DNA from: a virus
Length of the DNA stretch: 64,000 nucleotides
Virus record (IMG/VR): IMGVR_UViG_3300027749_000063
Span: 35,220-99,219 of that record
Reading direction: 5' to 3' (one strand)
Position numbers and translations under genes: made by a program. Shown piece after piece: positions 1,544-60,699 of this stretch. A model generated the notes under the pieces. It saw only the letters and a list, made by a program, of their open reading frames with translations, was not told the DNA's origin and made no database searches. Each line of letters begins with the position of its first letter. Within the stretch, counting starts at the first letter, position 1.

Positions 1544-3430
1544 ATGTCTACTTGTATTGATTGCTACGGAACTACTTCTATTGACCCTTGTGGAACTACA
1601 GGGTGTATCTCTACCAACTATGGTAAGTGTATAACCTATTCAGGTGCAGATCTTTTTTGTGCTACAGGTGCTGTTAAAACTTTTAGTGTAACTGGAGTAG
1701 CAGTAAACCCTACTGTACTTACTGAGTACACTGTATCTCCAACAGGAGGAGCAGGAAGTTCTTTAAGTGTTAAGGTAACTCGTACTCCAGGTTCTACTAC
1801 CTACACAGTGACTTTGGTTTCTGCAGGTTCAGGCTATGCTATTAATGACGTAGTAACTGTTGCAGGAGCTAGCTTAGGGGGAACTACTCCAGCTAATAAC
1901 TTATCTTTAGTTATTACCGCATTGGTTCCTTTAATCTCTTCAGTAAATACTATTGACGAAGTTATTGCTAATATTAACTCTAGACTATGTACTTTAACTT
2001 CTGTAGGATTAAACTACTCAGGATTTAACTATGCTTGTCTACGTGTAGGCGGTAACTTAAATAGTATAGGAACTTCTATTACAACTGCTCAACAGTTTGC
2101 TGAATCTACTTCTGCTGCTTTGTGTTCTTTGAATACTAGAACTCTTGCATTAGAAACTCCTACGTTTGTTGCTGCTTGTGTATCTGGGATTACTTCAGGT
2201 ACTTCTACTCTAAGTCAAATCTTGACTGCTTATGGAACTAAAATATGTTCTATTAACACAAGTGTAGATATGACTGGGGTTACAAACAATCCTTGTATCT
2301 CGTACTCATTTACTACTAAGCCTTCTACCACTGTAGTTTCAGATTATATTAACTGGGTCACAACTAACATGTGTGGCATGTTCCAGACTTTAAATACAAG
2401 TATTGTTACTGTAACTACTGCAGCAGCTGCTCTTAAGACTTATATCTCAGGGGGGTCTGCTGTTCCTGCATCTATTAATACTTCTTGTATTTCAGGAGGA
2501 TCTGCTACAAGCACTTTGAGTGCAGCAGCTATCTTGTTTACTAGTCAGATTTGTGCAATCAACACTACTTTAGCTTCTATCCCTGCTTCTAGTTATGCTC
2601 TAACTTGGGCTACAAACTTTGGATCAACTCCTTACTATGGTTATACTTTTGGTTTTACTAACAGTTCAGATACTTTAGCTAACCAGTTAGGTAAGATTGT
2701 TTCTACCTTAGGTAGATTAAAACTTAAGTTAAACTCTGGTGACTTTGTTGCTACTAGTGATTCAGATGGATTAAATGTAGCTTTGGCTTCAGGAGTAAGA
2801 TTTGCTTGTTCTCAATTGAGTACTTGTTCTATCTCTGCTTTATCTGATGTAACTACAAGTTCTCCTGCAACCTACCACACTTTGTTCTGGAATGGTTCTG
2901 AGTTTGTAAACAAAGAACTTATCTTTACTTCAACAGGAGGAACAGTAACAGTTACTCGTACTGATAACGTAGGTAATGTAACTATTAATTTAGAGTCTTC
3001 TGGATCAAGTGGAACAGCTACAGCTGCTACTTTGGTTGCAGGAACTTTGACCAATGCAGTAGTTGCTGCTTCGTTAAGATTCCCAAGTGGATCTTTACCT
3101 AGAGTATCTAAGTTTGGTAAAACAATAACAATTGTAGGAAGTTTGGCTGTTAATGCTACAGGTTCTTTTGCTTGGGCACATGGTCAATCTTTAATATTTG
3201 CAACAGTTCCTGCAGGATATCTTCCTTTATACCTTCCAGTATTTAACGTATTGATTCTTAAGTATACAACAACTTCAGGTACTAACTCGACTGTTGTATA
3301 TCAAGGAGTAGCATACATAAATAGTAGTGACTTAAGTATAGAGTTGAATAACCCAGCAAGTCCAATATCTTTATCTGTTGGAGAATCTCTTGAGATATTT
3401 ATCGGAGGAAATTCTTACGCAGCAATTTAA
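1544..3430 (+). CDS. Cys/Thr/Ser-rich tail fibre protein
   Basis: CITYSG N-terminus, an AGSGYAINDVVTV-type beta repeat, repeated helix+Cys units (LCTL, LCSL, ICSI, ICAI), ISALSDV fibre motif, C-terminal beta-sandwich (VPAGYLP). Confidence 0.65.
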   Translation: MSTCIDCYGTTSIDPCGTTGCISTNYGKCITYSGADLFCATGAVKTFSVTGVAVNPTVLTEYTVSPTGGAGSSLSVKVTRTPGSTTYTVTLVSAGSGYAINDVVTVAGASLGGTTPANNLSLVITALVPLISSVNTIDEVIANINSRLCTLTSVGLNYSGFNYACLRVGGNLNSIGTSITTAQQFAESTSAALCSLNTRTLALETPTFVAACVSGITSGTSTLSQILTAYGTKICSINTSVDMTGVTNNPCISYSFTTKPSTTVVSDYINWVTTNMCGMFQTLNTSIVTVTTAAAALKTYISGGSAVPASINTSCISGGSATSTLSAAAILFTSQICAINTTLASIPASSYALTWATNFGSTPYYGYTFGFTNSSDTLANQLGKIVSTLGRLKLKLNSGDFVATSDSDGLNVALASGVRFACSQLSTCSISALSDVTTSSPATYHTLFWNGSEFVNKELIFTSTGGTVTVTRTDNVGNVTINLESSGSSGTATAATLVAGTLTNAVVAASLRFPSGSLPRVSKFGKTITIVGSLAVNATGSFAWAHGQSLIFATVPAGYLPLYLPVFNVLILKYTTTSGTNSTVVYQGVAYINSSDLSIELNNPASPISLSVGESLEIFIGGNSYAAI

Positions 3431-3475
3431 TAAAAATCTTGGCAGGATTTTTTGGTTGGTTTTCCTGTCATCTTG

Positions 3476-3512
3476 CTAGTAGGAGCCTGCGAAAGTGGGC
3501 TCTTCTAGTTTT
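3476..3512 (+). terminator. Intrinsic terminator
   Basis: AGGAGCCTGC-GAAA-GTGGGCTCTT stem with a GNRA loop, extended by CTAG/CTAG, then TTTT. Confidence 0.75.
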
Positions 3513-10588: not shown

Positions 10589-10984
10589 ATGAGCTCCTTT
10601 AACATGAAAGAAAAAGAATTATTCACAACAATTAAGCCTGAGATCTTTATCGGCCAATTGTTCCAGTCACGTGATATGATGCACTTGACTCACCTTCAAA
10701 CTGTAAACTATGCAGAACACAAAGCATTAAACGCTTACTATGATGGTATCCTTGATCTTACTGACTCTCTTACCGAAACTTACTTTGGTACAATCGGAAA
10801 ACGTCTTAACATCAAGATCCCTGCATCAGAGTACATGAACTCTAGAACCCACTTAACTTACTTGAAAGATTATATTTTCAAGCACAGAGGAGTATTGGGT
10901 ATGGAGAACACTCACATTCAAAACATTATTGATGAGATCCTTGGTCTTATTACTGAGACTCTTTACTTGTTGACACTATCTTAA
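10589..10984 (+). CDS. Ferritin/Dps-like four-helix protein (DUF5856-like)
   Basis: HLTHLQT..YAEHKAL..YYD.I.DL.D.L.E and QNIIDEI motifs. Confidence 0.7.
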   Translation: MSSFNMKEKELFTTIKPEIFIGQLFQSRDMMHLTHLQTVNYAEHKALNAYYDGILDLTDSLTETYFGTIGKRLNIKIPASEYMNSRTHLTYLKDYIFKHRGVLGMENTHIQNIIDEILGLITETLYLLTLS

Positions 10985-10995
10985 AATAAAAATAT

Positions 10996-11379
10996 ATGAA
11001 TCGTTTAAAAGAAGCTTACGCTGGCTGCATGAATTGCGGAGGTAAGGTAAAAATGAAATCTGGAGGTAAATGGATCCAGTCTGCAATTAAAAATCCAGGA
11101 TCTTTTACAAAGCAAGCACAAGCTGCAGGTATGTCTGTTACAGGATTCCGTAATAAAGTACTTAGCAATAAAGGTGCTTACTCTTCTACTACTGTTAAGA
11201 GAGCTAACTTAGCTAAGACTCTTTCTAAGATGCGTAAAGGAGCAGCAGGTATGTCTGTATCTGAGTATGGAGGCATGGAAAAATATGCTTCTAAAAGTGC
11301 TATGAAAAAACACGAGTCAAAGGAAAGTAAAAAAACGGAGGCTAAAGAAGAATCTAAATTTATTAAAAGAAGAAAGTAA
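10996..11379 (+). CDS. Small basic protein, putative internal virion protein
   Basis: Lys-rich; WIQSAIKNPGSF...KRANLAKTL motif; RLKxAY and xGG motifs. Confidence 0.6.
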   Translation: MNRLKEAYAGCMNCGGKVKMKSGGKWIQSAIKNPGSFTKQAQAAGMSVTGFRNKVLSNKGAYSSTTVKRANLAKTLSKMRKGAAGMSVSEYGGMEKYASKSAMKKHESKESKKTEAKEESKFIKRRK

Positions 11380-58902: not shown

Positions 58903-59403
58903 TTATTTTAAGTTTTCTAGCCAGTCTATATCGTCTGGATTACTGGCCATTAGTATTTGGTTAATTCTTTTAAAGTGATCACACTCCCAAACTCCACCTT
59001 TGTATACAGCAGAAACAGGATGTGATGCTACTAGTACGTGGTGTACATCATCGTTGATAAGGGGAGCAAACTTTAAAGCGTCCTTTCCCCAAAAACAGAA
59101 TATAAGTCCTGTAGTACTCTCGTTTAGTGTTTTGAATACAGCTTCTGTAAACTGTTTCCAAGGCTCTAGATGAGAACCTGACTTACCTTCTTCGATAGTC
59201 AAAGCAGCATTTAGCATAAGAACTCCTTGCTTAGCCCATGATTCTATATTCATATCAGTGGGGAAGCTTAGTTCATCAGGATAAATGTCTTCTTTGATTC
59301 GTTTGTAGATCATTCTTAAAGACGGAGTCACATAAGTTTTTTTTCTAGGAGAGAAAGCTAATCCATGAGCAATAGGTTCCCCTACATTTCTACCTGGATA
59401 AGG
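58903..59403 (-). CDS. ung: Uracil-DNA glycosylase (family 1), exon 2
   Basis: Begins CCT TAT (PY); AHGLAFS, PSL..IY, GVLMLNAALT, SH...W, FWGKDA and HP motifs. Confidence 0.9.
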   Translation of the reverse strand, partial: PYPGRNVGEPIAHGLAFSPRKKTYVTPSLRMIYKRIKEDIYPDELSFPTDMNIESWAKQGVLMLNAALTIEEGKSGSHLEPWKQFTEAVFKTLNESTTGLIFCFWGKDALKFAPLINDDVHHVLVASHPVSAVYKGGVWECDHFKRINQILMASNPDDIDWLENLK

Positions 59404-59458
59404 CATATTGTTATCGTATAGGCTCTTTATCCTATACATCTATACATTACTGCATAGT

Positions 59459-60454
59459 TCAGACTATATCATCAACAGACTTAAGTCCTCCAGAAACTAT
59501 ACCACCAGGATAGATGGTAAGTCCTCTAGACTTAATATTTATTGTCTGTTGCAGGGTGCTCGTGTCAACATTACTGTCCTCAGCATTATCTGTTTGGACT
59601 CGGTTGTTAGTCGTTGAACCTTCAAAGACATTTCTATCTAAGCTCGGCTGCTGATTGTCCTTGTTAGGATGTTCCAGCAATTCTCCCTGTTTTACATGGA
59701 CCCTATTTGCATAAGGAATTAATTTGTACTTTAAACTTGGAATAACATATGGAGTTACTAGGGAAAGGAATCTTTCTCTAGACTCTGCTACTATATAGAT
59801 TTCATTCATTGCATTCTTGTTTGTATTAATATCAAAGTTTTCCTTTAATATTATTTGCAATATTGCAATTTCTTCATCTAAAAAACTACAACTACTAATT
59901 TGGAAAGAGTTTTTAGTTGCAAACCCATCATCCATAAACCATACAGCAAGGCCAAATGCATCTAAATCCTTTAGAAAATCATAGTTGATACTTTTTTTAG
60001 GAGTATACTGACTACAATAACTGTTGAATATAGTATTTGCCTCTGTACTTAATATGTTGTTAGTATAAAATCCTTTTTTAACTCTTACATCTTTTGAAGT
60101 ACAGTTTCGTATACTTGTAATTATGTCTTTTGAGTGTAAGAAATTTAACTTCCACATATTGTAGTCTGTTTGTTTTTCTCCGTGACCAATTACTAATCTA
60201 GCGTTTTTACTTTGTTTCGCACTCATAGCAAAACAACCATCTCCTAAAAAACTGCCTAACAAAAACTGTCGTAACTCAAAGTCAACCTTTATATATCTAG
60301 TCTTATTTGCCTTGATTTTATAACGACTTGATAGTTTTTGTATGTGTTGTGGGGTAGTACTTAGGATTTTTGATATTTCTAGGTTAGTAAGTCCTTTTGA
60401 GTTTAGTTCTGTTATTTTTTGTTTCCAAGTAGTGTTTGTTGGTAGAGTTCCCAT
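59459..60454 (-). CDS. Intron-encoded double-motif LAGLIDADG homing endonuclease with an N-terminal HTH
   Basis: FLLGSFLGDG and GLAVWFMDDG motifs; N-terminal GLTNLEISKIL HTH-like segment; the C-terminal ~80 codons are the translated ribozyme core. Confidence 0.9.
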   Translation of the reverse strand: MGTLPTNTTWKQKITELNSKGLTNLEISKILSTTPQHIQKLSSRYKIKANKTRYIKVDFELRQFLLGSFLGDGCFAMSAKQSKNARLVIGHGEKQTDYNMWKLNFLHSKDIITSIRNCTSKDVRVKKGFYTNNILSTEANTIFNSYCSQYTPKKSINYDFLKDLDAFGLAVWFMDDGFATKNSFQISSCSFLDEEIAILQIILKENFDINTNKNAMNEIYIVAESRERFLSLVTPYVIPSLKYKLIPYANRVHVKQGELLEHPNKDNQQPSLDRNVFEGSTTNNRVQTDNAEDSNVDTSTLQQTINIKSRGLTIYPGGIVSGGLKSVDDIV

Positions 60455-60459
60455 ACCTA

Positions 60460-60489
60460 CAAATATAACACAAATTAATTTTTATGCAA
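60460..60489 (-). promoter_or_regulatory. Intron-internal Bacteroidota-type promoter for the endonuclease
   Basis: On -: TTG (60489-60487), 19 nt, TATATTTG (60467-60460), then the ATG 5 nt later. Confidence 0.8.
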
Positions 60490-60498
60490 GTTTTATCA

Positions 60499-60699
60499 AT
60501 CCATTCCTAAGATAACAACCCTTACTTTCTGAAAAGGAGTTAAGTTAAAAGCCTTAAAGACTTCATCCTTGTAAGGAAAGATAGTTTTAGTCTTTCTCTC
60601 ATTAGCAATGAATCTTCCTAAGGTATTAAAGTAAGGACTTTCTATTGTGTCTTTTAAGTGATGATACCAATCGTCTGGAATATCAATTAATTTTTGCAT
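60499..60699 (-). CDS. ung: Uracil-DNA glycosylase (family 1), exon 1
   Basis: W...L......YF..L..F...ER....IFP....VFKAF..TP...VRVVILGMD; the spliced product would be 233 aa. Confidence 0.9.

Follow-up and report, generated by a model that had tools for sequence, protein, structure and literature searches.

A predicted mobile group I intron separating Asp and Pro codons in the catalytic loop of a phage uracil-DNA glycosylase

A mobile group I intron with IA topology very probably interrupts the gene of a family-1 uracil-DNA glycosylase (UDG) in a freshwater, apparently crAss-like phage, at the codon junction between Asp and Pro in the catalytic, water-activating G(M)DPY loop. The gene lies on the minus strand of the window (the whole stretch of 64,000 nucleotides that was analyzed), as do all window features described here, and consists of exon 1 (60699..60499) and exon 2 (59403..58903), with an insert of 1,095 nt (60498..59404) between them. 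Exon 1 is an open reading frame of 67 residues that ends in VVILGMD, its last codon being that of the catalytic Asp; the RNA reads GGA AUG GAU up to U60499 and continues directly into the in-frame stops UGA UAA. The insert ends in G59404, the omega-G, after which exon 2 opens with CCU UAU at 59403 (PYPG). Exon 2 encodes 166 residues beginning with PYPGRNVGEPIAHGLAFS, has its stop codon at 58905..58903 and matches the Pfam UDG family PF03167 (6.8e-8). These exon ends and the intron-final G agree in all coordinates with the original prediction. Spliced in silico, the two exons yield a UDG of 233 residues that is colinear with intron-less crAss-like UDGs (VVILGMD|PYPG compared to VVMIGQDPYPQ). 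Recognizing the intron corrects the annotation, in which the UDG would otherwise figure as two broken fragments.

The assignment of the protein to family 1 was made with the continuous allele of a close relative, L006, which aligns over its full length (residues 9-230, E 4e-47) with human UNG (2ssp, 1akz). In this alignment GMDPY falls on GQDPY, as had been proposed for the motif restored by splicing, GVLMLN on GVLLLN and SHPVS on HPSP, so that the catalytic Asp, the uracil-specificity Asn and the His all have their counterparts. By this alignment, the freshwater proteins with the GMDPY motif are predicted family-1 uracil-DNA glycosylases. The clade shows two departures from the human enzyme: the Gln of GQDPY is replaced by Met (window 60499-60507; L006:3300-3998), and the DNA-intercalating Leu of HPSPLS falls into a one-residue gap (SHPVS-AVYKG, 59000-59020).

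A search of IMG/VR with the exon 2 protein returned 80 loci (53-98% identity). In 77 of these an exon-1-like frame directly adjoins the exon-2-like frame with no gap, and exon 1 of the window aligns to these 77 continuous alleles without gaps. At the nucleotide level, the nearest alleles (L006 and L008) have identities to the window of 98% for exon 1 and 97% for exon 2. They read GGAATGGAT|CCTTATCC (in longer form ...GGAATGGAT|CCTTATCCAGG) across the site, the same letters as the flanks of the insert in the window, which fixes the intron at 60498..59404 to the base. In the intron-less alleles with this reading, the flanks are 98-100% identical to those of the window. The junction is also unable to slide, since the bases at the two boundaries differ (T/G and T/C).

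The insertion is present in a lake metagenome, X2, independent of the likely source of the window. Here, a contig of 1,225 nt runs across both exon-intron junctions, which argues that the insertion is not an assembly artefact. In the same DNA run, another contig joins 59403 to 60499 and skips the 1,095 nt, as an intron-less allele would. Over 59333-60550, the intron-plus form has a depth of about 6 and the intron-less joint contig of about 2. The presence of both alleles in one lake sample points to a population that is polymorphic for the intron. Freshwater and lake metagenomes make up the public runs in which the stretch occurs.

The insert carries the core of a group I ribozyme. A covariance-model search matched Rfam RF00028 at 59766..59440 over the full model (positions 1-253) with 74.7 bits (E 4e-17; gathering score 50), and this is the sole such match in the whole virus record of 99,219 bases. 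Such a match had been named as a check on the original prediction, which had also listed the P, Q, R and S elements, P3 and P7; all of these are found, with support from covariation. The core extends from 59689 to 59440 and comprises P3 (59689..59683 / 59558..59552), P4 (59679..59674 / 59654..59649), P5 (59669..59666 / 59661..59658), P6 (59648..59646 / 59620..59618), P6a (59639..59635 / 59630..59626), P7 (59615..59608 / 59466..59460), P7.1/P7.2 (59606..59566), an extended P8 of 79 nt (59551..59473) and P9 (59457..59440). It is followed by the P9.1 hairpin (GUAUAGG / CCUAUAC, 59437..59416), which has a conserved loop, GAUAAAGA, and then by GAUAACAAUAUG and the 3' splice site.

We analyzed covariation across 12 members of the intron family, which were collected by scanning for a conserved R-element pattern, aligned with MAFFT and compared to a hand-written structure reaching from P3 to P9.1 and including the P7 pseudoknot. 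Over its 62 pairs, 94.3% of the alignment cells were paired, compared to 28-42% for slid partners. Compensatory changes occurred in 29 of the pairs, and none of 500 shuffles came up to these values. In P9.1 (helix 16), six of seven pairs changed on both sides. P7 is invariant and therefore uninformative. The region P7.1/P7.2 (helices 8-10) was 100% paired, with compensatory changes from A-U to G-C, and as it lies between P7 and the 3' strand of P3 it indicates IA topology, confirming the proposed subgroup. P8 is variable and was mis-aligned by MAFFT (helices 11-13 were 30-83% paired), so that its support comes from single-sequence folds. The minimum free energy fold of a mini-intron (z = -1.97) recovered the P1 extension, P3, P4, P5, P6, P6a, P7.2, P8, P9 and P9.1.

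The extended P8 recurs elsewhere in the family. The window hairpin (59473-59551, -30 kcal/mol) is letter-identical in an intron of a DnaB-like gene (L091:5333-5640) and nearly identical in the ORF-less intron of a GHKL ATPase gene (L094:1319-1626), while the rest of these two introns differs from that of the window. In the ORF-less UDG introns P8 has 17 nt, compared to 79 in the window. Judged from this distribution, the extended P8 looks like a portable peripheral module that is swapped between introns.

Both splice sites can be paired with a single guide region at 59704..59696. Its hexamer GUCCAU (59701..59696) forms a P1 with the last six bases of exon 1 (AUGGAU, 60504..60499) in which all six positions pair and the final pair is a U.G wobble. 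Directly 5' of the hexamer, AGG (59704..59702) pairs with the first three bases of exon 2 (CCU, 59403..59401) to form a P10 of 3 bp. With the U.G wobble in P1, P10 and the terminal omega-G59404, the features expected of group I splice sites are present; both pairings had been foreseen in the original prediction and are borne out by the sequence. GUCCAU adjoins J1/3 and P3, and the window intron lacks a P2. P1 has all six pairs in 12 of the 13 UDG introns compared, and the guide tracks the exon: GUCCAU occurs with AUGGAU (GMD), and GUCCUG or GUUCUG with CAGGAU (GQD). Such co-variation of guide and exon is predicted by selection for splicing.

In the region from the 5' splice site to the guide, UGCAUAA (60488..60482) pairs with UUAUGCA (59714..59708) in a hairpin of 7 bp, which by its position is an extension of P1. 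The evidence for it comes from the minimum free energy fold and from comparison with ORF-less introns of 277 nt, one of which (L075) has the compensatory change from UGCAUAA/UUAUGCA to UGCGUA/UACGCA. The endonuclease gene of the window intron (about 760 nt) forms the terminal loop of this hairpin and thus lies inside L1, where about 800 nt separate the guide from the 5' splice site. An 8-nt direct repeat, AAAUUAAU, is found on either side of the endonuclease gene insertion (60474-60481 and 59718-59725) and in single copy in the hairpin loop of the ORF-less introns; it may have been left behind by the insertion event or be due to chance, given the AT-rich sequence.

The ORF-less introns of 277 nt are located at the same codon junction of UDG genes in two further loci, L057 (intron at 3224-3500) and L075, whose UDG proteins are 52-60% identical to that of the window. 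They match RF00028 with 74.4 and 70.3 bits, respectively, and their cores are 84-95% identical to that of the window. When a third UDG intron, L095, is included, the cores of the four introns are 84-97% identical, compared to 64-70% for their UDG exons. We conducted a census of IMG/VR with a pattern consisting of the 3' end of the family followed by G|CCN TAY CC, and found 17 other contigs with the same intron family at the G(Q/M)D|PY site of UDG. For three of them, only the exon 2 side was within the locus; in all contigs that reach far enough upstream, the UDG is split at G(Q/M)D|PY, by introns of 277-1,094 nt. Many of the census contigs have a length of about 95 kb and encode UDGs similar to those of crAss-like phages from the gut.

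The open reading frame within the intron (60454..59459, stop UGA at 59461..59459) encodes a predicted LAGLIDADG homing endonuclease of 331 residues. It matches Pfam PF03161 (LAGLIDADG_2; 1e-21, residues 62-214) and PHROG 11023, and is 69% identical to the endonuclease of the UDG intron L095. Its two motifs, LGSFLGDGCF and LAVWFMDDGF, each contain an acidic residue, and both motifs are conserved in a three-way alignment. The last ~80 codons overlap the guide, the region P3-P8 and the 3' strand of P7. Neither the location of the endonuclease in L1 nor this read-through of the core was part of the original description. Translation through the ribozyme core could disturb the folding of the RNA.

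Read-through of this kind is widespread in the family. In the ORF-bearing members (window, 59459-59714; L089, L090, L091, L092, L095, L096), the endonuclease ORF has no stop of its own and, be it of the LAGLIDADG, HNH or GIY-YIG+NUMOD1 type, continues through the guide, P3-P7 and often P8. This yields a common peptide, GELLE..NQQPSL..FEGSTTNNRVQTDNAEDSNVDTS..DDIV*, which is dictated by the ribozyme sequence. L085 is an exception: its HNH frame terminates ahead of the core, which is spanned by a separate open frame; the annotated crAssphage gp35, unlike this HNH frame, reads through the core. As much of the core is open in a second frame too, the openness is in part compositional. Endonuclease genes of three unrelated families lie in the P1 loop, where endonuclease synthesis and ribozyme folding may exclude each other on any one RNA. 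One could speculate that this provides a switch timing homing against UDG expression, or that the shared C-terminal tail is functional, but we regard either as rather unlikely.

Taken together, these features describe a well-formed UDG intron that is probably active and mobile. In the pre-mRNA, AUGGAU of exon 1 would pair with GUCCAU about 800 nt downstream, and the 7-bp hairpin closing the endonuclease gene loop would bring the end of exon 1 and the guide together. An exogenous G would attack after U60499, omega-G59404 would dock, and P10 (AGG/CCU) would align exon 2, so that ligation would produce ...GGAAUGGAU|CCUUAUCC, which encodes the intact UDG. On unspliced RNA, ribosomes would halt at UGA UAA right past the splice site. 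In a co-infection, the two-motif endonuclease would cut an intron-less UDG gene around GGAATGGAT|CCTTATCC, and repair from the intron-plus copy would spread the element by homing. Both splicing and endonuclease cleavage are predicted from sequence features, and the need to form P1 across about 800 nt counts against this scenario. The sporadic distribution of the intron, with 77 of the 80 relatives lacking it, the conserved cores within divergent exons, the co-occurrence of both alleles in one DNA sample and the conserved endonuclease motifs fit homing.

We considered whether the intron might instead be a decaying relic that is defective in splicing, leaving the UDG a pseudogene expressed as a stub of 67 residues. 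Homing elements are generally known to decay after fixation, and in the contig sets of three RNA libraries we found no contig bridging 59403|60499, a result to be read with their partial coverage, as the contigs (X18, X19, X20) reach only 59009-59266, 59685-59936 and 59420-59627, apart from some short fragments resembling the core, and the libraries may also contain DNA. In a relic, however, one would not expect both exons to be intact at 97-98% nucleotide identity to continuous alleles, nor all conserved core elements, the U.G pair, P10 and omega-G to be preserved, nor the core to be 84-97% identical to copies in other hosts, nor the endonuclease ORF to be full length with both LAGLIDADG motifs; we therefore think it very improbable that the element is defective.

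Two further explanations dispense with an intron in the UDG gene altogether. A free-standing endonuclease gene might have split the UDG into halves that are translated separately and reassemble, comparable to the split phage nrdA/nrdB genes, and an in-frame ATG ahead of exon 2 (ORF 59439..58903) would allow for this. Yet a complete, covarying ribozyme lies exactly between the halves, its guide follows the exon sequence, and the ORF-less copies of 277 nt at the same site are inexplicable by an element consisting of an endonuclease only, which leaves this explanation with next to no probability. We give equally little weight to a mis-joining of the intron into the UDG gene during assembly; the window does come from a metagenome-assembled virus record, but the contig of 1,225 nt from the independent sample X2 spans both junctions and the family occupies the same codon junction in the 17 other contigs. 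We rejected readings of the insert as an intein or a group II intron on account of the in-frame stops at its start and the match to the group I model. The self-splicing, mobile group I intron is thus our preferred explanation for the split UDG gene.

Members of the intron family also occupy other genes. By Pfam assignment, the hosts are dUTPase (L085, L092), class II RNR (L089), a GATase / peptidase C26 (L086), a GHKL ATPase (L094) and an AAA ATPase (L096); a DnaB-like gene (L091) had no Pfam hit and was assigned by eye, and a further member is found in a capsid gene (L090). Reading the pairings by eye, we found in six host-gene classes, the capsid gene not being included, a hexamer upstream of J1/3 that is complementary to the end of the intron's own exon and includes a U.G pair. 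In these classes, the triplet ahead of the hexamer likewise pairs with the first bases of the 3' exon, except in L096, where the P10 register is ambiguous. Among the ten loci searched, four (L095, L091, L086 and L096) had no Rfam listing at the gathering threshold, though they can be aligned to the family. The guide of this one intron lineage appears to have been retargeted to at least eight catalytic motifs (UDG, dUTPase, RNR, GATase, DnaB-like, GHKL, AAA and capsid), which makes the family well suited as a natural series in which to study target changes of introns and endonucleases.

Two of these loci show further peculiarities. The ORF-less intron in L086 (8735-9060, minus strand) splits the catalytic-Cys motif GICLG|MQ of the glutamine amidotransferase / peptidase C26, and its P1 is short, as is conventional, with a P2 hairpin behind it, whereas the UDG introns have no P2. 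In L094, a second Rfam group I match (10819-11051, plus strand, 67.8 bits) lies about 9 kb downstream of the GHKL ATPase intron.

Core genes of crAss-like phages have been described before as hosts of group I introns (Yutin et al. 2021, PMC7886860), without RNA structures or analysis of guide sequences; the main text of that study refers to UDG as a conserved gene only and does not name it as an intron host. Our literature search, with most subscription journals outside its coverage, turned up no description of a UDG gene with an intron, and of the UDG homologues in GenBank phages all 102 are in one piece, none having a related intron. The original prediction had called UDG an unusual host, which holds for the searched literature and GenBank phages but does not for metagenomes, given the 17 IMG/VR contigs. 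Relative to the searched papers and GenBank phages, UDG is new as a host and joins the phage genes colonized by group I introns; the element itself is of an expected, well-known kind and is not rare among metagenomic phage contigs. The genes next to that of the UDG form a replication module comprising a DnaA-C-like HTH protein, a Toprim primase, DUF932 and a DNA polymerase, and the phage appears to be crAss-like, judging by the relatives of its UDG and of the intron.

The closest known counterpart is the dUTPase intron of p-crAssphage (Carjivirus communis, BK010471), which belongs to the same family. Its core is 85% identical to that of the UDG intron over 142 nt, and the two align helix for helix, with compensatory changes. 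In the annotation of BK010471, gp34 "contains intron insertion" and gp35 is an intron-encoded HNH endonuclease. As in the UDG intron, the endonuclease ORF is located upstream of the guide and runs into the core, and the insertion interrupts a catalytic motif (GTLDY|GYRGE) in a gene of nucleotide metabolism. The two differ in the host gene (dUTPase rather than UDG), in the endonuclease (HNH rather than LAGLIDADG), in the guide (GUAGUC rather than GUCCAU) and in P8, which is short in p-crAssphage and extended in the window. p-crAssphage is from the human gut whereas the phage of the window is from a lake, so that one closely related intron lineage connects crAss-like phages of both environments.

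A more distant parallel is provided by the td, nrdB and nrdD (sunY) genes of phage T4, whose self-splicing group IA introns have P7.1/P7.2 and are associated with the endonucleases I-TevI, I-TevII and I-TevIII. These introns occur in conserved catalytic sequences of nucleotide-metabolism genes, have stop codons close to their start, are propagated through homing driven by their endonucleases and show a patchy distribution among relatives. The UDG intron resembles them in its IA topology, in P7.1/P7.2, in its insertion into a catalytic sequence, in its early stops and in its patchy distribution. However, the T4 endonucleases are of the GIY-YIG or HNH type and are looped out from P6 or P9, whereas the LAGLIDADG endonuclease of the UDG intron emanates from the P1 loop, and the T4 introns have a P2, which is absent from the UDG intron, where the guide adjoins J1/3-P3.
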